From assembly GCA_964469525.1 (NCBI GenBank), contig CAYXYU010000001.1:68508-132507 (forward strand): 64,000 bases of DNA, written 5' to 3'. Below are positions 4,143 through 60,877 of this stretch, in pieces. Below the pieces are notes generated by a model. That model did no database searches, was not told the origin of the DNA, and saw nothing but the letters and a program-made list of their open reading frames with translations. Source of the stretch: an uncultured Rickettsiales bacterium. GTDB lineage: Bacteria; Pseudomonadota; Alphaproteobacteria; Rickettsiales; SXRF01. The position numbers and the translations under genes are program-made. Numbering within the stretch: the stretch's first letter is position 1; each line of letters begins with the position of its first letter.

Positions 4143-4853
4143 TTATTTGAATAATGGCTGCAGATTCTTAATCTCATCACGGATGATAATGGGAATGAGC
4201 GACGAGAATGTGTTGAGAATGACGATCGCACTGACCGTGCCGTCGCCACTCCATTTGACAGCGTTGCGCAGACGGGTGGCCATGGCCTCGTTAAGCGACC
4301 GCATGGTATTATAGAGCCGCTCGATTTCCTGAAGATCAATGGATAGCTCCTTCTTGTCGATGTTGGCAGTCAGCTGACGCATTAGGTAAGTAGAGGTAAT
4401 GCGACAGATCGTTTCTTCGAGCGAAGAGAACGGCAGGTGGTAACGCGCCATATATTTGAACGGCTGCATCAAAGGGCAACCGCTGGTAGCCATAACCAAC
4501 CCGATCAGACTACGCAGTGAATCCTGGAGATCGCCTTTCTTAATATAATTGCGTTCTGGCGTAGTAACGGTGGTCATAGCCTGTGCTTGTGAGATCAGCC
4601 CATCGAAACGGCGCAGCGGTTCGGCCAATCGCAACGCGATGGGGCAGTATTCGCTGTTCTCCAGCGGGCAGTTTGTGCACTTGCCATTCTCCAGTCTTGC
4701 CCATTCGGGCGGTACGTCATCGGTCATGACATTGGAAATCATCGTCTCCTTATGGATATCGATGGCATAGGAAGTGACGGTGCCGTCGTCGAACTGCATC
4801 CGGTATTCAACCGTGTAATACGGCTCTTCTTCTCTGACCGGTTCGCTGTTCAT
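4143..4853 (-). CDS. hypothetical Cys-containing protein, translationally coupled to the HD-GYP gene
   Basis: 236 aa. Start ATG overlaps the upstream stop (ATGA, 4850-4853). Motifs GKCTNCPLENSEYCP and ATSGCPL. No family recognised by eye. Confidence 0.6.
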   Translation of the reverse strand: MNSEPVREEEPYYTVEYRMQFDDGTVTSYAIDIHKETMISNVMTDDVPPEWARLENGKCTNCPLENSEYCPIALRLAEPLRRFDGLISQAQAMTTVTTPERNYIKKGDLQDSLRSLIGLVMATSGCPLMQPFKYMARYHLPFSSLEETICRITSTYLMRQLTANIDKKELSIDLQEIERLYNTMRSLNEAMATRLRNAVKWSGDGTVSAIVILNTFSSLIPIIIRDEIKNLQPLFK

Positions 4854-6508
4854 GCCATTGGCAGCGGTTTAATGGCAAGCAAGGCAGCTTCGTCTACGTT
4901 GTCGATCAGCTCAGGCTGCATGTATTTCTCTGCGTAAATCAGGTACGTTTTCGAGGTGATGAAGAAATCGACGATGTCGGGATCCAGGTGGTTGTGTTTC
5001 TTCATCTGACCGATGATGTGCATACATTCTGACAGCTTCTTGGGTGCCTTGTAGGGGCGGTCGACGGCGGTCAGTGCCTCGAACACGTCGGCCACCGCCA
5101 TCATGCGCGCCGGGATCGACATGGTACCGGCCATAATACCCTTGGGATAGCCTTTACCGTCCATGCGCTCGTGATGTCCGCCGGCATATTCCGGCACACG
5201 CCTGAGATGTTTCGGAAATGGCAGCGCTTCGAGCATGGCGCAGGTATGGACCATGTGATCATTCATGATCATGCGCTCTTCGTTGGTTAGCGTCCCCCGG
5301 CGGATGCTTAGGTTGTAGATCTCGTTATCGGTCAGCACCTTTCTTTCTTCTTTGCCATCGTGCCAACGGTAGGCCTCCGCAATCTGCTGGAGCCGGGCAA
5401 TATGCTCATCGGACATGAACTCGCCGCCGATATTGGCTTGGGCAATAAATGTGAAGTCGGCGTCGATCTGACGAATGCGCGAGGCCAGTGTCTCTTCCAG
5501 TACCTGACGGTTGGCGCCGGGCTTTCCCGCCTGCTCGAGCATGGCAATTTTCAGGTCGCGCTTAATCGCTTCAAATCGCGTACGGATCAGCTCAATGCGG
5601 TCGAAGATGGTCTCGAGCTTGGTCGACTTGTCCATCACATGCACGGGGGTGGTGATCTTGCCGCAATCGTGCATCCAGCCGGCGATATGCAGCTCATATT
5701 TTTCTTCCTGAGTAAGCTGGAAATCCTTGAACGGACCCTCTCTGGCATCGATCGCTGCCTGGGCCAGCATGTTGGTCAGGAGCGGCACGCGCTCGCAATG
5801 CGCCCCGGTATAGGGCGACTTGGCATCGATGGCCTTGGCGATTAGCTTAATGAAGGATTCAAGCAGTTCCTTCTGTGCTAGGATCAGCTGCCGGTTGTCG
5901 AGCATGATAGCCGCCTGCGAGGCCAGGGAATGCACCAGATTCTGCGTTTCGGCGGAAAACGGTATAACCGTGCCGGTGACGGGGTCACGGGCGTTAATCA
6001 GCTGCAGACAGCCGATCGTTTCGCGCGTGTGACTGACCATCGGGATCGTCAGCACCGAGCGGGTGCGGTAATTGTATTTTGCATCAAAGGCTTTTGTTCC
6101 TTTGAAATCGAAGCCATCGGCATCGTAGACGTCTTCAATGTTGATTGGTTTCTGCTTGAGCACGGCAAACACGGACTGCGTGGCGTAATTGGGCTCTCTG
6201 GTGACCGGGTCATAGAGATGAATGGGTAGCATCGGTGCTTTGACACCGGTGCTACCGCCGAAAGCAATATTCAGAGGATCATTGTGGACGATGGCAAATT
6301 CGAGACGGTCGTCTTCAGTACGAAAGTACAGTGTGCCGCCCTCAGCATTAGTAATCTCCTTAGCCTCGGTGAGGATAATCTCGAGCAAGCGGTCGAGATT
6401 GTTTTCCGTCGACAATGCCATGCCGATCGCCACCAGGCGCTTGACTAGGGAAATCACATCATGATGCGTATGAGCGGCCGGGACCGCTAATGTCGGTTTT
6501 ACGGACAC
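4850..6508 (-). CDS. GAF domain / HD-GYP domain phosphodiesterase
   Basis: 552 aa. N-terminal GAF-like region (LDRLLEIILTEAKEITNAEGGTLYF...IGCLQLINA). HD motif HIAGWMHDCGKITTP. HHERMDGKGYPKG is the HD-GYP signature. Confidence 0.85.
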   Translation of the reverse strand: MSVKPTLAVPAAHTHHDVISLVKRLVAIGMALSTENNLDRLLEIILTEAKEITNAEGGTLYFRTEDDRLEFAIVHNDPLNIAFGGSTGVKAPMLPIHLYDPVTREPNYATQSVFAVLKQKPINIEDVYDADGFDFKGTKAFDAKYNYRTRSVLTIPMVSHTRETIGCLQLINARDPVTGTVIPFSAETQNLVHSLASQAAIMLDNRQLILAQKELLESFIKLIAKAIDAKSPYTGAHCERVPLLTNMLAQAAIDAREGPFKDFQLTQEEKYELHIAGWMHDCGKITTPVHVMDKSTKLETIFDRIELIRTRFEAIKRDLKIAMLEQAGKPGANRQVLEETLASRIRQIDADFTFIAQANIGGEFMSDEHIARLQQIAEAYRWHDGKEERKVLTDNEIYNLSIRRGTLTNEERMIMNDHMVHTCAMLEALPFPKHLRRVPEYAGGHHERMDGKGYPKGIMAGTMSIPARMMAVADVFEALTAVDRPYKAPKKLSECMHIIGQMKKHNHLDPDIVDFFITSKTYLIYAEKYMQPELIDNVDEAALLAIKPLPMA

Positions 6509-6556
6509 GTTATCTCCTTAACCTTCTAATATTTATTCTTTTATACATAGTATGCG

Positions 6557-7399
6557 TTAACTTTCGATTAAGCCAATTTTCAACCCTTCTTTTGCGATAA
6601 TCGAGCCGAATCGCAGAGTTTCCAGCTGCGCCGCCCGTTTGTCGAGTACGGAGTCGGTGGCATCGGGGTCGTGATGGAAAACCACGAGTTTCTTTACACC
6701 CGCCGCATCAGCAAGCCGTACACCCTGTTGCCAGGTCGAATGCCCCCATCCACGATAGCGTTCGAATTCCTCGTCGGCATAGGTCGAATCATAGATTAGC
6801 AGGTCGGCCCCTTGGACGAACTGCGTCAATGCCTTGTCAGGAGTGGACGATACATGTTCATAATCCGTGATATAACAGACCGATTTGTCCTGACAGGCGA
6901 GACGGTAGCCGGTGGCGCGATCCGGATGCGCAAGCGGCAGGGTCGTGATGCGGATGCCGTCTTTCTGCCAGTCATCCGCCAGCTCTTCGCCTGCGGCAAA
7001 ATCGTGGTATTCCACCTCGGCCCTGAAACTCTTGGTCGTCAGTGGAAATACGGGTGGCTGCATGATCATGCCGATTACACCGGCTAAATCATAATCGGGC
7101 TTGAGATGGCCTGCCCACAGCCGTATCCGGCGCGACGCATCTGCGCACGGCGCAAAGAAGGGAATGCCAAGAATATGATCGATATGTGTGTGGCTGAGCA
7201 GGATATCGATCTGCTTGTCTTTTAACATATCACCTAGGGGCTTAAGGCCGGTTCCACCATCAAACACAAAGCATCGGCCGGCACAATGGACTTCGACACA
7301 GGAGGTATGGCCGCCATATCGTGCCACAGAAGCGCCTGAAACCGGGAAGGAGCCGCGCACTCCCCAGAAACGTAACCAGAAATCATTATTGCCCGTCAT
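6557..7399 (-). CDS. MBL-fold metallo-hydrolase
   Basis: 280 aa. FWGVRGSFP...GGHTSC N-terminus and HxHxDH motif (LLSHTHIDHILG). Start is 1 nt from the stop of the upstream OMP gene. Confidence 0.8.
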   Translation of the reverse strand: MTGNNDFWLRFWGVRGSFPVSGASVARYGGHTSCVEVHCAGRCFVFDGGTGLKPLGDMLKDKQIDILLSHTHIDHILGIPFFAPCADASRRIRLWAGHLKPDYDLAGVIGMIMQPPVFPLTTKSFRAEVEYHDFAAGEELADDWQKDGIRITTLPLAHPDRATGYRLACQDKSVCYITDYEHVSSTPDKALTQFVQGADLLIYDSTYADEEFERYRGWGHSTWQQGVRLADAAGVKKLVVFHHDPDATDSVLDKRAAQLETLRFGSIIAKEGLKIGLIES

Positions 7400-16850: not shown

Positions 16851-16962
16851 GCAAACTCCGGCAATTTTCTGCTTCTTCTATAGCGCCTATGAATTAATTT
16901 ACGGTTAACTAATGGCTTATGCCATTAGAGCCTTTTCATTATTGACCCATCGACATTTGGGC

Positions 16963-17053
16963 GCGAAGCGCCTCACCCTACCTCTCTCCCGCAAGCGGGA
17001 GAGGGAAGCTGCCGCTTCGCGTCAGCGAAGAGGCGGCGGGTGAGGGCATGAGG
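16963..17053. repeat. nested-palindrome repeat (ccctcaccc / ctctcccgc family), compact copy
   Basis: cgcctcaccc...ctctctcccgc-aag-cgggagaggg, then gccgcttcgc-gtca-gcgaagaggcggc, then gggtgagggc. Outer arms are mutually complementary. Confidence 0.7.
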
Positions 17054-17070
17054 TAAATAATGAAAATGCT

Positions 17071-17745
17071 CTAGAAATACATCCGCCCGCCAAGTTCGAA
17101 ATTATGCGAGTCGTTGGAGGTTTTGAATCCGGCGGCAATGGTATCGGCCTCGGCTTCGGGCTCCTGACTGCCGACGTAGCGGTAACCGAAGCTGAAGACG
17201 ATGGGCGTCCTGCCGGCATCAAGAGCGTAACTGATGCCGAGCATGCCTTGGTAGCCCAGCGTCCATTCCTTCAGCGACAGGGTTTCCGAAGGCGGACCGG
17301 GGATGGTGTAATAGACCGGACTCTTCACATGTATAGCTCCAATGCCGGCACCGATGTAGGGGGTGAAAGGCGTGTCATTGATTAGGTCGATATATACATT
17401 TCCCATAATGGTGACGGAATCCTGCAGGTGGCGAAATCCTGCGGGAGGATCAATGTTATCCAGTTCATTGCGGCGATAGGCCACTTCCAGCTCGGTGCGC
17501 ACGCCAGCGAGCAGCTTATAGCCTATGGCGCCGGCAACGCCGAAGCCGGGCTCGAAGCTGAGCTTCGTAGGAACCAGGGGGCCGGTGGTTTCAATATCGG
17601 CCGGCCGCAGCAGCACCAGCGAAGTGCTCAAGCCCGCATACCAGCGCGGGTTGTCGCCTTCGTGGCAGCAGGCCCGCTCCAGCGCATGCGCGGCAGAGGG
17701 GAGAGCCAGCGAGGCGATAATAATATAAGATAGTACGCTACGCAT
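17071..17745 (-). CDS. outer-membrane beta-barrel protein (small OMP), paralog 2
   Basis: 224 aa. Signal peptide ending AHA. Ends NDSHNFELGGRMYF. Shares PRWY.GLSTSLV and FTPYIGAGIGA blocks with paralog 1. Confidence 0.7.
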   Translation of the reverse strand: MRSVLSYIIIASLALPSAAHALERACCHEGDNPRWYAGLSTSLVLLRPADIETTGPLVPTKLSFEPGFGVAGAIGYKLLAGVRTELEVAYRRNELDNIDPPAGFRHLQDSVTIMGNVYIDLINDTPFTPYIGAGIGAIHVKSPVYYTIPGPPSETLSLKEWTLGYQGMLGISYALDAGRTPIVFSFGYRYVGSQEPEAEADTIAAGFKTSNDSHNFELGGRMYF

Positions 17746-20791: not shown

Positions 20792-20812
20792 GATTCCTCC
20801 TCTCTTTTAACC

Positions 20813-20927
20813 GTCATTCCCGCGCAGGCGGGAATCCATATTCCAGAGTCGGAAATAAGTACGGGGAAAAGCTCATACAGAGCATTTCCTTTAGTGGTTA
20901 TGGATGCCCGTCTGCGCGGGCATGACG
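20813..20927. repeat. MITE-like pair of inverted GTCATTCCCGC..GCGGGAATCC hairpins
   Basis: gtcattcccgcgcaggcgggaatcc (20813-20837) and ggatgcccgtctgcgcgggcatgacg (20902-20927) are in inverted orientation about 64 bp apart, in the pheT-pheS gap. Confidence 0.6.
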
Positions 20928-26031: not shown

Positions 26032-26086
26032 GACTTGACAAGCCAGCGCCGCAGGCAGATAATCACGGTTTTTCTATTGTTTAATT

Positions 26087-26193
26087 CCCTCTCCCACAAA
26101 GTGGGAGAGGGTTAGGGTGAGGGCACTTTGTTCCTTTTAAGGAAGCGTCGCCCTCACCCCAGCCCTCTCCCGCATGCGGGAGAGGGGGGAAGT
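26087..26193. repeat. nested-palindrome repeat, empty two-arm copy abutting the argD RBS
   Basis: ccctctcccac-aaa-gtgggagaggg tta gggtgagggcac, then a 23-bp spacer, then gccctcacccc ag ccctctcccgc-atg-cgggagagggg. AGGAG at 26194-26198 and the argD ATG at 26202. Confidence 0.75.
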
Positions 26194-26201
26194 AGGAGCC
26201 G

Positions 26202-27488
26202 ATGTCTGCGGTATTGCCGGTCTACCGGCGTTCCAACATCACCATCACCCGGGGCGAGGGAATGTATCTCATCGCCGCCGACGGCAGGCGCTATCTCGAT
26301 TTTGCCTCCGGCATCGCCGTCAATGCGCTCGGGCATTGCCATCCGCACGTTGTGGCAGCGCTTAAGGAACAGGCCGATACGCTGTGGCACTGTTCCAATT
26401 TGTACCGCATACCGGGACTAGAGCGGCTGGCCGAGCGTCTCGTCGCGGCGAGTTTTGCCGACAAGGTGTTCTTCTGCAATTCCGGCACCGAGGCGGTGGA
26501 GTGCGGGCTGAAGATGGTGAGGAAATACTTTTCTTCTTCTCCTTCCCCACTTGTGGGGGAAGGTGGGATGGGGGGGAACTCTCCACATGCTCAGGCATCG
26601 CGTCCGACGCGCCACCCCTCCCACCTTAATCCTCCCCCACGAGGGGGGAGGAAATATAGAATCATCACCATGGAGGGCGGTTTTCACGGGCGCACGCTGG
26701 CCTGCATCTCCGCCGGCGGCAACGAGGTGGCGCGCAAGGGTTACGAGCCGTTGCTGGACGGTTTCGACCGGGGGGAATTCAATAACCTGAAAGCGGTGGA
26801 AAAAGCGATCACGCCCGAAACCGCCGCCATTCTCGTTGAGCCGATCCAGGGCGAGGGCGGGGTGCGCGTGGCGACGAAGGAATTCCTGCAGGGGCTACGC
26901 CGCCTGTGCGATCAGCATGGTTTATTGCTGTTCCTTGATGAAGTGCAGTGCGGCATGGGCCGCACCGGCGCCCTGTTCGCGCATCAGCAGATGGGTATCG
27001 TGCCCGATATCGTGACGGCGGCCAAAGGCATCGGCAACGGCTTCCCACTGGCGGCATGCCTGACCACCGACAAGGTCGCCGCCGCCATGACGCCCGGCTC
27101 GCACGGCTCGACCTACGGTTCCAACCCGCTGGCGATGGCGGTCGGCAATGCCGTGCTCGACGTCATGCTGACACCGGGCTTTTTCGAGCAGGTTGCCATG
27201 ACGGGTGCACTGCTGGAAAACGGCCTGCAGGGGCTGGCGAAGGATTATCCCCACCTGATTGCCGATGTGCGCGGGGCGGGGCTGATGCTCGGCATCCAGA
27301 TGCGCATCGATCACCGGGATTTCACCGAGCAGCTGCGCGGCGCCGGGCTGTTGACCGCCCCTACCGCGGAAGGCGGCGTCATCCGCATCATTCCGCCGCT
27401 GATCGTCCAGCGGGAACATATCGAAGAGGCGTTGCGCATCCTGCGCGGCGTATGCGAGGCCTATGGCAGGGAGCGTTATGCAAGCTGA
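26202..27488 (+). CDS. argD: acetylornithine aminotransferase carrying a 40-codon repeat-derived in-frame insertion
   Basis: 428 aa. Class III aminotransferase blocks (FCNSGTEAVE, GGFHGRT, LLFLDEVQCGMGRTG, TAAKGIGNGFP). Residues about 111-150 (SSSPSPLVGEGGMGGNSPHAQASRPTRHPSHLNPPPRGGR) are encoded by a palindromic element. Confidence 0.9.
   Translation: MSAVLPVYRRSNITITRGEGMYLIAADGRRYLDFASGIAVNALGHCHPHVVAALKEQADTLWHCSNLYRIPGLERLAERLVAASFADKVFFCNSGTEAVECGLKMVRKYFSSSPSPLVGEGGMGGNSPHAQASRPTRHPSHLNPPPRGGRKYRIITMEGGFHGRTLACISAGGNEVARKGYEPLLDGFDRGEFNNLKAVEKAITPETAAILVEPIQGEGGVRVATKEFLQGLRRLCDQHGLLLFLDEVQCGMGRTGALFAHQQMGIVPDIVTAAKGIGNGFPLAACLTTDKVAAAMTPGSHGSTYGSNPLAMAVGNAVLDVMLTPGFFEQVAMTGALLENGLQGLAKDYPHLIADVRGAGLMLGIQMRIDHRDFTEQLRGAGLLTAPTAEGGVIRIIPPLIVQREHIEEALRILRGVCEAYGRERYAS
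26535..26651. repeat. nested-palindrome element inside the argD reading frame (diverged family member)
   Basis: ccttcccc-acttgtg-ggggaagg, ggtgggatgggggg, spacer, ccacccctcccacc, cctccccc-acga-gggggagg. Same hairpin-arm-spacer-arm-hairpin architecture as 26087-26193. Confidence 0.65.
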
Positions 27489-28488: not shown

Positions 28489-29136
28489 ATGAATCCTATT
28501 GTTGTTATCATAGCGGTTCTTTTTTGCATCCTGATGGTGGCCTTTGGCAATAATCCCATCGAGGAGGCCAAGGAGGAGTATGCCAAGAAAATGGAGGGCA
28601 AGGACCCGCTTATCCACGCCATCGAGGAGCATAACAAGGCGACGCAGTTCCAAGATTTCGGCGTAGGAGATGCACTCAACACGGTGCCTGGCAGCCAGCG
28701 TACATATACCTACTCGCCTAATAATACAGGCTATCAGGATCCTACCGGCGCTCCACCCAACTATCCCGGCTATATGATGCGTGACGGCCAGCCGCAGAAT
28801 TACCAGCAGCCGCAGCTGGTGCCCTCACAGCCGGCACAGCAGCCCCAGAACAACTATTATCCGCCGCCCCCGACTTCTGGTCCGGCTTCGCCGCTGCAGC
28901 CGCAGCAGCAACCGCGCTCGCAGTTCAAAACCCCGGATATCTGGTTACCCACCTTTTCATCCATGCGGGAACTGCCTGTCCTGAGCACTGGCCAGCGCCT
29001 TCACTTCGTCGGCATGAATGTTTACACGTTTGACCGTAATGGTATTCCCATGGTCATGCCGAATGGCAGGTATGCAATGTACAATGGCGCTGTAACGCTG
29101 ATCGTCAAAGATGGAAAAAAAATTATCATAGACTGA
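28489..29136 (+). CDS. hypothetical membrane-anchored protein with P/Q/Y-rich linker
   Basis: 215 aa. N-terminal TM MNPIVVIIAVLFCILMVAF. Low-complexity QPQ/PPP region. Small C-terminal domain. Confidence 0.5.
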   Translation: MNPIVVIIAVLFCILMVAFGNNPIEEAKEEYAKKMEGKDPLIHAIEEHNKATQFQDFGVGDALNTVPGSQRTYTYSPNNTGYQDPTGAPPNYPGYMMRDGQPQNYQQPQLVPSQPAQQPQNNYYPPPPTSGPASPLQPQQQPRSQFKTPDIWLPTFSSMRELPVLSTGQRLHFVGMNVYTFDRNGIPMVMPNGRYAMYNGAVTLIVKDGKKIIID

Positions 29137-59852: not shown

Positions 59853-60327
59853 CCGGACGGCGCGTTCCTTTCTGTTGCTCGAGCTGGTGCGCGGCTTCGG
59901 CATCACGCTGAAATACATGTTCAAGCGGCCGGTGACGATTAACTATCCCTATGAAAAAGGCCCGCTCAGCCCGCGTTTTCGCGGTGAACATGCGTTGCGC
60001 CGTTATCCAAACGGTGAAGAGCGCTGCATCGCCTGCAAGCTGTGCGAGGCGATCTGCCCGGCGCAATGCATCACCATCGAATCCGAGGCCCGTGCCGACG
60101 GCAGCAGGCGCACCACGCGTTACGACATCGACATGACCAAATGCATCTATTGCGGCTTCTGCCAGGAAGCCTGCCCGGTCGACGCCATCGTCGAGGGGCC
60201 GAATTTCGAGTTCGCCACCGAAACGCGCGAGGAGCTCTTCTACAACAAGGAAAAACTGCTGGCCAACGGCGACCGCTGGGAATCCGCCATCGCCGCGAAT
60301 TTATTGGCCGATGCGGAGTATAGATGA
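59839..60327 (+). CDS. nuoI: NADH-quinone oxidoreductase subunit I
   Basis: ATG at 59839. Two 4Fe-4S motifs [12 protein letters not shown] and [12 protein letters not shown]. Ends LLADAEYR. Confidence 0.9.
60304..60327 (+). repeat. direct repeat DR1 (last 7 codons + stop of nuoI)
   Basis: ttggccgatgcggagtatagatga. Its partner at 60854-60877 is ttggccgacgcggagtacaggtaa. Confidence 0.8.
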
Positions 60328-60338
60328 TGAAAGGAAGC

Positions 60339-60446
60339 GCCCTCACCCCGGCCCTCTCCCGCTGCGCGGGAGAGGGGGAAGTGGTGGTAGCGACGATACA
60401 GACGGTCCCCTCTCCCGTTTACGGGAGAGGGTTAGGGTGAGGGCAC
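60339..60446. repeat. nested-palindrome repeats: solo B arm (60339-60382) plus A arm (60407-60446)
   Basis: gccctcaccccggccctctcccgctgcgcgggagagggggaagt ... cccctctcccgtttacgggagagggttagggtgagggcac. Confidence 0.75.
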
Positions 60447-60852
60447 TTAATGTTTTGTGAGGGCGCTTAGTTATGCGTGAAGGCCATAAGGTAGGTGGGG
60501 CAAGGCGATTACGTCGTACTCTTACCGACGCGGAAAGCACATTATGGTATTACCTGCGCGACCGGAGGCTGTTTGGCTTGAAGTTTCGCCGTCAATGTCC
60601 CGTAGGGCCGTACATCACGGATTTTGCCTGTGTGGAACATAAGATCATTATAGAATTGGATGGCGGGCAACACGCAGAACGACAGGGATATGACCAAAAT
60701 CGTGACCGCTTTTTGCAGCAACAAGGCTTTACCGTAATGCGATTTTGGAATAATGAAGCGCTGCAAAATACGGAAGCGGTATTGGAGACGATTGCGAACC
60801 ATTGCAAGTGCCCTCACCCCGGCCCTCTCCCGCAAGCGGGAGAGGGGGAAGT
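60407..60852 (+). mobile_element. candidate full-length unit of the nested-palindrome family carrying a DUF559 endonuclease gene
   Basis: The A arm (hairpin + gggtgagggc) and B arm (gccctcaccc + hairpin) bracket the DUF559 ORF here. The same arms bracket only 23 bp at 26087-26193. Confidence 0.45.
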
Positions 60853-60877
60853 TTTGGCCGACGCGGAGTACAGGTAA
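60473..60877 (+). CDS. DUF559 (Vsr/restriction-endonuclease-like) domain protein
   Basis: 134 aa. LRRTLTDAESTLWYYLR...FRRQ.PVGPYI.DF.C...K.IIELDGGQH...D..RD.FL...GF.V.RFWNNE. The C-terminus reads through the B arm (CPHPGPLPQAGEGE) and DR2 (LADAEYR). Confidence 0.8.
   Translation: MREGHKVGGARRLRRTLTDAESTLWYYLRDRRLFGLKFRRQCPVGPYITDFACVEHKIIIELDGGQHAERQGYDQNRDRFLQQQGFTVMRFWNNEALQNTEAVLETIANHCKCPHPGPLPQAGEGEVLADAEYR
60854..60877 (+). repeat. direct repeat DR2 (copy of the nuoI 3' end, in frame at the end of the DUF559 ORF)
   Basis: Differs from DR1 at 4 of 24 positions: gat/gac, tat/tac, aga/agg, tga/taa. All are synonymous or stop-to-stop. Confidence 0.8.

Follow-up and report, generated by a model that had tools for sequence, protein, structure and literature searches.

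How does a gene for a conserved enzyme come to carry a palindromic repeat within its reading frame, and how does such a repeat reach the same codon position in related genomes? These questions are raised by argD, the acetylornithine aminotransferase gene, in the stretch of 64,000 nucleotides (nt) analyzed here (the window; contig CAYXYU010000001.1 of an uncultured Rickettsiales bacterium), for which an earlier note made from the sequence alone had described a palindromic element in frame in this gene. Our analysis makes it probable that a non-coding repeat, selfish or neutral and consisting of an inverted pair of BoxC/PIT/TMECO-class units around a 36-nt spacer, landed in frame in a loop of ArgD, replaced 8 codons, and is translated as a probably disordered loop; the repeat would spread laterally, decay to scars, and probably be a cargo-less relative of cassettes that carry a DUF559 gene. 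We know of no textbook treatment of in-frame selfish palindromes outside Rickettsia, and the argD case would extend them to BoxC/triplex-motif repeats.

A palindromic insert in the argD reading frame

The gene and the parts of the insert are listed by window position.

26202 to 27488, forward strand: argD (acetylornithine aminotransferase), an open reading frame (ORF) of 428 amino acids (aa) encoding a class-III aminotransferase, intact save for the insert.
26529 to 26654, forward strand: in-frame insert F110 to K151, an inverted pair of triplex-motif units plus spacer, nonhomologous to orthologues, palindromic, and modeled with low confidence.
26541 to 26574, forward strand: left triplex-motif unit, CCTTCCCCA cttgt GGGGGAAGG tg GGATGGGGG, with Watson-Crick pairing of the C-stem and G-stem 1 at 8/9 positions and mirror symmetry of G-stems 1 and 2 at 9/9.
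26576 to 26611, forward strand: 36-nt spacer, without homology to the spacers of other lineages.
26618 to 26652, reverse strand: right triplex-motif unit of type A, TCCTCCCCC ctcgt GGGGGAGGA tta AGGTGGGAG, with Watson-Crick pairing at 9/9 positions, mirror symmetry at 8/9, and a TTA second loop.

The borders of the insert were set against the 120 best ArgD homologues, most of them 388 aa long, in 93 of which the loop could be parsed. Between RKY and GFHGR the loop measures 17 aa in 67 of these 93 proteins (HDATGNPERYRVITMEG type), in agreement with the short loop that the earlier note gave for other ArgD sequences, and a 17-aa loop is also present across Alphaproteobacteria, in Nitrospirae, and in other phyla. 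The window protein has 50 aa at this place, the insert having replaced 8 native loop codons (HDATGNPE type) for a net gain of 33 residues; a further +1 and +6 elsewhere bring ArgD to 40 aa above the usual 388 aa. The earlier note, which had proposed delimiting the insert by an orthologue alignment, placed all 40 extra codons in the palindrome. A nested palindrome, in frame and stop-free, is indeed present, and the alignment now gives it the span 26529 to 26654, the net gain of 33, and the replaced codons. The peptide around the insert is ...GTEAVECGLKMVRKYF-SSSPSPLVGEGGMGGNSPHAQASRPTRHPSHLNPPPRGGR-KYRIITMEGGFHGRT, without a stop and in frame; between ...KMVRKY and KYRIITMEGGFHGRT the protein reads FSSSPSPLVGEGGMGGNSPHAQASRPTRHPSHLNPPPRGGR, and predicted junction peptides include YFSSSPSPLVGEGGMGGNSPHAQASR and HPSHLNPPPR.

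Apart from the insert, the enzyme looks functional as judged from its sequence. Its homologues belong to PF00202 (Pfam; E values down to 1e-195), every column that is invariant among 21 orthologues is kept, and the frame continues into a normal aminotransferase, as had been read from the letters. Alignment with a T. maritima acetylornithine aminotransferase (PDB 2E54) yields two blocks, query residues 6 to 111 and 148 to 418, with the break at residues 111/148. The AlphaFold2 model of the window ArgD (predicted TM-score, 0.75) matches acetylornithine aminotransferase structures with a target-normalised TM-score of 0.87, and its per-residue confidence (predicted local distance difference test) falls below 50 at residues 114 to 149, between helix 97 to 112 and strand 153 to 157. 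The insert site is the loop between the GTEA-motif helix and the first core beta-strand (YRIITM). A loop in this place is expected at the solvent-exposed far end of the helix that begins at the phosphate-binding GTEA motif, and from the fold we infer that the insert loop lies at the enzyme surface. It is probably translated as a Gly/Pro/Ser-rich loop, which the model predicts to be disordered.

Could the insert be an error of assembly or annotation, or the gene a pseudogene? The contig derives from a metagenome-assembled genome (MAG), and palindromes can be misassembled. Logan's independent assembly of this sample (L001) has, however, an identical argD sequence, making an assembly artifact unlikely; eight independent assemblies, drawn from four sources, contain analogous inserts, and the downstream frame and invariant residues are intact. 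We regard an artifact or a pseudogene as scarcely credible.

The anatomy of the insert is that of a nested palindrome. Hairpin 1 (about 26541 to 26563) reads CCTTCCCCAC ttg TGGGGGAAGG, and hairpin 2 (26630 to 26652) has a perfect 9-bp stem, TCCTCCCCC acga GGGGGAGGA. The G-rich arm (26560 to 26575) and the C-rich arm (26612 to 26627) are 16 nt each, 88% complementary, and spaced 36 nt; the spacing is that of the earlier note, which had given the arms as 12 of 14 complementary. As a single strand, the 120-nt insert folds at -69.8 kcal/mol, compared to -48.4 +/- 3.8 in dinucleotide shuffles (z = -5.7; 0/200 shuffles as good). The intergenic repeat 340 bp upstream (26080 to 26200) folds with z = -8.4, so that the hairpin-arm-spacer-arm-hairpin layout that both had been said to share is borne out. 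Two other candidate features were set aside: a 12-nt flanking repeat, considered as a target-site duplication, consists of native RKY/KYR codons plus the element end, and a terminator function was rejected for want of a T-run after the hairpins on either strand.

The repeat class of the insert

To which class of repeats does the insert belong? The published BoxC/PIT/TMECO pattern is CCCTCNCCC N3-6 GGGNGAGGG N3 GGGNGAGGG, and units of type A (TTA) and type B (CCG) occur as inverted pairs in E. coli (PMC4666352). A pattern search of the window, in which the first loop was allowed up to 7 nt (one unit needs 7 nt), returned five exact matches (26087+, 26151-, 60340-, 60408+, and 60811-) compared to 0 in 100 shuffles. 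Copies outside argD include the following.

26087 to 26186: intergenic sibling of the argD insert, an inverted canonical TMECO pair with exact pattern matches at 26087 to 26123 (forward strand, TTA loop) and 26151 to 26186 (reverse strand, CTG loop).
60340 to 60443: canonical TMECO pair of exact matches directly upstream of a DUF559 gene, with type B at 60340 to 60376 (reverse strand) and type A at 60408 to 60443 (forward strand).
16971 to 17005: degenerate solitary triplex-motif unit of the same family, intergenic.

The intergenic pairs of the window fit the inverted pairing of TTA (type A) with CCG/CTG (type B). In each unit, a loop joins a C-rich stem to a G-rich one, and a further G-rich block, set off by a short loop, mirrors the first. 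This three-block rule, which gives the potential for a purine-motif triplex and in which the C-stem pairs with G-stem 1 and G-stem 2 mirrors G-stem 1, is followed by both argD units at 8 to 9 of 9 positions and also by the argD inserts of five related lineages described below (L003, L004, L006, L007, and L090). The second loops are TTA in the right argD unit and a shrunken TG in the left one; L003 (TTA plus CCG) and L007 (CCG on the left and, as read by eye, TTA on the right) fit the pairing. By its sequence, the argD insert is a diverged inverted pair in the BoxC/PIT/TMECO class and shares its motif class with the window's five canonical units.

Two observations concern the surroundings of these copies. 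The 3' end of the intergenic sibling adjoins the Shine-Dalgarno sequence of argD, GGGAAGTAGGAGccgATG (26186 to 26204), and in the related lineage L089 (4663 to 4679) an element end abuts or supplies the Shine-Dalgarno sequence of argF, GGGGGGAGCTAAGGAGacatATG, in which case polar effects of insertion would be limited. The solitary unit at 16971 to 17005 is nested within a separate 22-nt inverted repeat (TAGAGCCTTTTCATTATTGACC / GGTAAATAATGAAAATGCTCTA; window 16926 to 17073).

The likeness to the BoxC/PIT/TMECO repeats (Bachellier et al. 1990s; Hoyne et al. 2000; Holder et al. 2015, PMC4666352) includes the three-block architecture, with the exact pattern in the intergenic copies, and the instability of presence and absence between close relatives (PMC4666352). 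Such BoxC/triplex-motif repeats have been reported in more than 260 proteobacterial genomes, and the TMECO repeats of E. coli K-12 were described as always intergenic (PMC4666352). The argD element departs from that description, since it lies within an ORF, in frame, where the pair would be translated as part of an enzyme; a relative has another pair in dxs, the stems are variant (GGGGGAAGG/GGATGGGGG), and a DUF559 gene stands beside units as a candidate partner.

The Rickettsia palindromic elements (RPEs), reportedly described by Ogata et al. in 2000 and 2002, are likewise palindromic, non-autonomous, and found in frame in housekeeping genes at tolerated loops, with both intergenic and intragenic copies. 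The argD insert resembles them as an in-frame palindromic repeat in a protein-coding gene with further copies elsewhere. In contrast to the RPEs, its host is an uncultured alphaproteobacterium of ~57% G+C, its motif is G/C-rich and of the triplex type, and several lineages bear an insert at one shared codon position, their nearest relatives being without the full one; the separation is one by description. Membership of the insert in the RPE families is unlikely. The analogy drawn in the earlier note holds for a dispersed palindromic family sitting in frame in a permissive loop, and is refined in that the family is BoxC/PIT/TMECO (PMC4666352), which is not specific to Rickettsia.

Intragenic dimers of repetitive extragenic palindromes (REPs) encode 20 to 30 aa in frame in known genes of many species, and in two recB genes different REPs occupy nearly the same position (Di Nocera et al. 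2013, PMC3733652). A GTAG or CGTC tag marks those families, the GTAG type being linked to RAYT transposases, whereas the argD element has neither tag (GTAG follows only one window unit, on the wrong side for a REP tag), and the recurrence seen here extends over eight orthologues with evidence of lateral spread. The REPIN/RAYT and REPtron systems share with the present one an inverted doublet that folds into a long hairpin, a small nuclease gene with such units on both sides, and dispersed cargo-less copies. Here, however, the bracketed gene is a DUF559 gene (PD-(D/E)XK, Vsr-like fold; PDB 3HRL) and not an HUH tyrosine transposase, and a six-frame motif scan of the window found no RAYT (HUH Y1 transposase). 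As in a miniature inverted-repeat transposable element, the argD insert has inverted termini; the target-site duplication of such an element is absent at argD. The insert is of a known kind, the in-frame selfish repeat exemplified by RPEs and intragenic REPs, and what is new is its BoxC/triplex-motif class, its recurrent landing site, and the link to DUF559.

Inserts at the same loop in related lineages

Among the 120 nearest ArgD proteins, 8 have loops of 39 to 55 aa at the insert position, with unrelated peptides. The insert bearers, the window and seven others, represent one uncultured alphaproteobacterial clade, and their shared synteny (ABC-2 permease, argD, argF, a small ORF, and dxs) shows that the insert-bearing genes are orthologous. 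All six folded inserts (L002 to L007) are strong palindromes, with z from -5.0 to -11.5, and the insert of L090, which was left unfolded, is 90% identical to that of L006. Triplex-motif pairs with variant stems are present in L003, L004, L006, L090, and L007, that is, in at least five lineages. Where G-stem 1 has an A, G-stem 2 has one at the mirrored position, as in GGGGGAGGG/GGGAGGGGG and GGGGGGAGG/GGAGGGGGG or GGTGGGGGG in the relatives and GGGGGAAGG/GGATGGGGG in the window. This three-way covariation of the blocks offers comparative support for triplex (mirror) geometry as the maintained feature; going by the sequences, it is the three-block DNA symmetry that is maintained, and not the peptide. 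The F-S that opens each insert derives from the unit's CTTCC flank.

Searches for further inserts added little. When metagenomes were scanned for the RK[YF]-F-[S] junction, only 2 matches appeared, one an FSGT scar and the other a normal loop. A profile search with the eight insert segments returned short aminotransferase fragments only and missed the query proteins themselves, and a search with the insert peptide found no candidate and missed the parent protein too, so that its null result is uninformative.

How was the insert inherited? In a neighbor-joining tree built with the loop masked, insert-bearing proteins are scattered. The nearest sampled neighbor is without the full insert for 8/8 bearers, and bearers are never each other's nearest; six of these neighbors have a native loop, and in two cases, P0053 (to P0005) and P0107 (to P0070), only a short remnant is present. 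The earlier note had held that an insert shared by orthologues from unrelated lineages would point to an ancestral loop. Inserts at the same site do occur in orthologues, and yet their patchy distribution, their diverse sequences, and nearest relatives without the full insert show that the loop is not ancestral.

The best-resolved case involves three lineages. L006, with the insert, and L088, with a native HYKNDSER loop, share 95.8% aa identity and 80.7% identity at four-fold sites, whereas L006 and L090, both with the insert, share 80.9% and 56.3%, respectively, although their inserts are identical at 92/102 positions without a gap. In Jukes-Cantor distance the two inserts are 0.105 apart, compared to 0.223 between L006 and L088 and 0.66 between L006 and L090, so the common ancestor of the two inserts, if these are neutral, is younger than the split from the insert-less lineage. 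HYKNDSER is a clade-specific native variant found in P0103, P0081, and P0096, meaning that the clade ancestor had a native loop. These sequence comparisons show that inheritance was non-vertical in at least one well-resolved case, and they indicate lateral spread or site-specific insertion of the insert. In addition, 17 nt upstream and TATAGA downstream are common to L006 and L090 and different in L088; these shared flanks are suggestive of a short converted patch, the sites being few (about 5).

The same comparisons bear on the idea that the loop is a lineage-specific functional part of the protein, kept by protein-level selection and palindromic by chance. The frame is kept in all eight lineages, and natural loop length varies from 12 to 21 aa, as such a loop would allow. 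This idea has to contend with the patchy distribution of the insert (native loop in 6/8 nearest relatives and a short remnant in 2/8), with peptides that are unrelated across lineages, and with a conserved feature that is a three-block DNA symmetry in a segment predicted to be disordered. The ten differences between the L006 and L090 inserts comprise 7 nonsynonymous and 3 synonymous ones, so that protein-level constraint on the insert is not apparent. A functional loop is, in our judgment, very improbable.

Alternatively, the DNA or RNA itself could act in cis, a triplex or long hairpin tuning transcription, mRNA stability, or replication through argD-argF. Structure-forming symmetry is kept while the sequence drifts, and the TMECO triplex forms in vitro (PMC4666352), which would fit such a role. 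Earlier in vivo work, as summarised in the same source, found no promoter, terminator, or polymerase effect (PMC4666352); most orthologues are without the insert, and collapsed scars are common. Rfam at gathering thresholds reported four tRNAs only, with no match at the insert. On balance, a cis-acting element is improbable.

Given that inheritance was non-vertical in at least one case, what moved? One possibility is that a single ancestral allele, in which the insert was gained and the native loop lost, spread by lateral short-patch homologous recombination via the highly conserved flanks. This would explain why the same 8 codons are replaced and a common TTY-TCN junction is found in every insert, why the inserts of L006 and L090 agree at 90% of their positions when the neutral sites of the two genes agree at 56%, why these two share flanking nucleotides that L088 does not, and why five of six triplex-motif inserts have the same orientation. 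It is harder to reconcile with spacers that are unalignable between most lineages, with the insert of L003, whose orientation is opposite to that of the other triplex-motif inserts, and with the different palindrome of L005; the co-conversion signal amounts to about 5 sites, and no drive for the spread of a neutral insert is evident. We consider such a spread of one allele plausible, if short of probable.

Loss of the element may be seen in the same set of genomes. L089, the sister of L007, which has the full pair, keeps a single hairpin, FSSPSRGEGK, as would be expected if the two terminal hairpins had recombined with each other. The short loops FSGT, FSAP(G)K, and WG[KQ]G in other lineages look like further scars. 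By their sequences, copies would decay through recombination between terminal hairpins, leaving short FS... scars.

A second gene is affected as well. In L003, whose MAG also has the argD insert, a canonical TMECO pair lies in frame in dxs (DXP synthase; 6490 to 6583) and adds SLSLRERGGVRGFEAGQSTAKPSPNPLPKGEGF, 33 residues absent from four orthologues, for a net gain of 29, so that argD is not the only gene in which such a pair has landed in frame. A constant 24-nt footprint, considered as a rule of insertion, was ruled out with this second example, which replaces only ~12 nt.

DUF559 genes beside the units and the question of mobility

What could mobilize such units? A candidate stands in the window itself.

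60473 to 60877, forward strand: DUF559 endonuclease-like ORF between nuoI and nuoJ (Pfam PF04480, E = 8e-44; PDB 3HRL, E = 3e-29), the only DUF559 gene in the window.

The 3' end of this ORF reads through a triplex-motif unit (60811 to 60846, reverse strand) and a relic nuoI tail to end at the relic nuoI stop (…LADAEYR*). The layout of the cassette equals that of the argD insert: hairpin plus G-arm (60408 to 60443), gene, and C-arm plus hairpin (60811 to 60846). On its two sides the nuoI tail is imperfectly duplicated over 24 nt (60304 to 60327 and 60854 to 60877; 20/24 identical). In a second cassette, in L089 (4173 to 4700), C-rich hairpins and G/C arms bracket a DUF559 gene; this insertion lies at the argD/argF junction, 24 nt inside argF, with a 24/24 duplication of the argF start and a new Shine-Dalgarno sequence brought in. 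Given this shared frame of hairpin, G-arm, cargo, C-arm, and hairpin, the argD element is probably a cargo-less relative of the DUF559 cassettes.

The association extends beyond this clade. Triplex-motif units lie within about 200 nt in 9/13 DUF559 loci, which besides the window include PLSDB loci L093 to L103 (L098 being E. coli ycjD); two of the remaining loci have other C-rich palindromes, and two have none. The nine positive loci (window, two in Azospirillum, and one each in Sinorhizobium, Sphingomonas, E. coli [ycjD], Deinococcus, Synechocystis, and Neisseria) span five groups, namely, Alpha-, Beta-, and Gammaproteobacteria, Deinococcus, and Cyanobacteria. Unit density near DUF559 is roughly 50-fold above the background of 0.025/kb in 588 kb of other loci, and in S. 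meliloti the pairs that flank the DUF559 gene are inverted copies of each other. Across 5426 complete E. coli genomes, ycjD, an accessory gene, is present in 3378 and a near-consensus triplex-motif unit in 3768, these being marginal counts only. According to Holder et al., mobility functions were never found near TMECO sites, and one TMECO adjoining ycjD appears in their supplementary table (PMC4666352). In the library that we searched, no paper was found to link DUF559 to BoxC/PIT/TMECO repeats. On the strength of these arrangements, DUF559 is a candidate mobilising partner of the units.

These cassettes also give substance to a second account of the recurrent landing site, repeated de novo insertion at this codon position in a site-specific, homing-like manner, possibly catalysed by DUF559. 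Every bearer's nearest sampled relative is without the full insert, spacers and orientations vary by lineage, the two cassettes at the argF start and at nuoI/nuoJ each have a 24-nt target duplication, and a further in-frame pair exists in dxs, all of which would fit such insertion. At argD, however, no target duplication is present; the activity of DUF559 is a prediction from sequence, the argD, dxs, and intergenic sites have no recognisable target motif in common, and the inserts are closer to one another than to the local repeats of their own loci. Homing-like insertion seems to us possible and rather unlikely.

The occupation of one codon position in eight orthologues whose nearest sampled relatives are without the full insert is evidence that these repeats move, apparently into genes too, with some site preference or drive. 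In the reading that we favor, an inverted pair would have landed in the argD loop in place of 8 native codons, and the same loop would be occupied in several lineages because lateral transfer between relatives carries along an insert-bearing patch or the element itself. Several points weigh against this reading. Both argD units fail the strict TMECO consensus, with stems CCTTCCCCA/GGGGGAAGG/GGATGGGGG and TCCTCCCCC/GGGGGAGGA/AGGTGGGAG. The earlier note had reasoned that the lack of another copy of this variant in the genome would speak against a repeat family, and the 64-kb window indeed has no second copy of the exact variant, although it has five canonical units of the same motif class. The L002 insert is only degenerate, and that of L005 (3328 to 3417) is an unrelated palindrome with GTGTCGG-like repeats and 30-nt arms, 87% complementary, behind the window's TTTTCTTC junction. 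No target-site duplication is found at argD, and this reading does not account for the removal of precisely the 24 native nt. Spacers show no homology between lineages except L006/L090, so that a single origin and repeated insertion are inseparable for the deeper events. Finally, intact frames were recovered via protein searches, which are biased against broken copies.

A broader proposal, which we put forward only tentatively, is that small DUF559 (Vsr-like PD-(D/E)XK) endonuclease genes have BoxC/PIT/TMECO repeats as their non-autonomous partners, much as RAYT transposases have REPs. A DUF559 gene with its units would then form a mobile or homing cassette that is widespread, with hosts ranging from E. 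coli to Deinococcus and cyanobacteria. Derivatives of it without cargo could insert in frame at conserved places within genes, the ArgD loop among them, and afterwards pass from one species to another. To our knowledge, BoxC/PIT/TMECO repeats have remained for about 30 years without a known function or mobility mechanism; through the DUF559 link, the mobilising enzyme that has been missing would have a concrete and testable candidate, and a large domain of unknown function might be given a role. Such inserts also inflate or distort the gene models of MAGs and mark permissive enzyme loops.

Palindromes of another type occur in the same genomes. At 20812 to 20927, the window has a different palindromic element with CGTC-tagged, dRS3-like ends (CGTCATTCCCGCGCAGGCGGGAATCC ... 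CCCGTCTGCGCGGGCATGACG), 29-nt arms that are 90% complementary, and a 58-nt spacer. L006 has a CGTC-tagged nested palindrome between argD and argF (4255 to 4335; CGTCATTGCGAG ... CGAAGCAATCCAG/CTGGATTGCTTCG ... CTCGCAATGACG), unrelated to its argD insert, with a second copy of the inner hairpin 3.8 kb upstream (428 to 462). Downstream of argF in the window (28489 to 29136) lies a Gln/Pro-rich ORF of 215 aa with no Pfam match, and a small unannotated ORF occupies the same syntenic position in the relatives.

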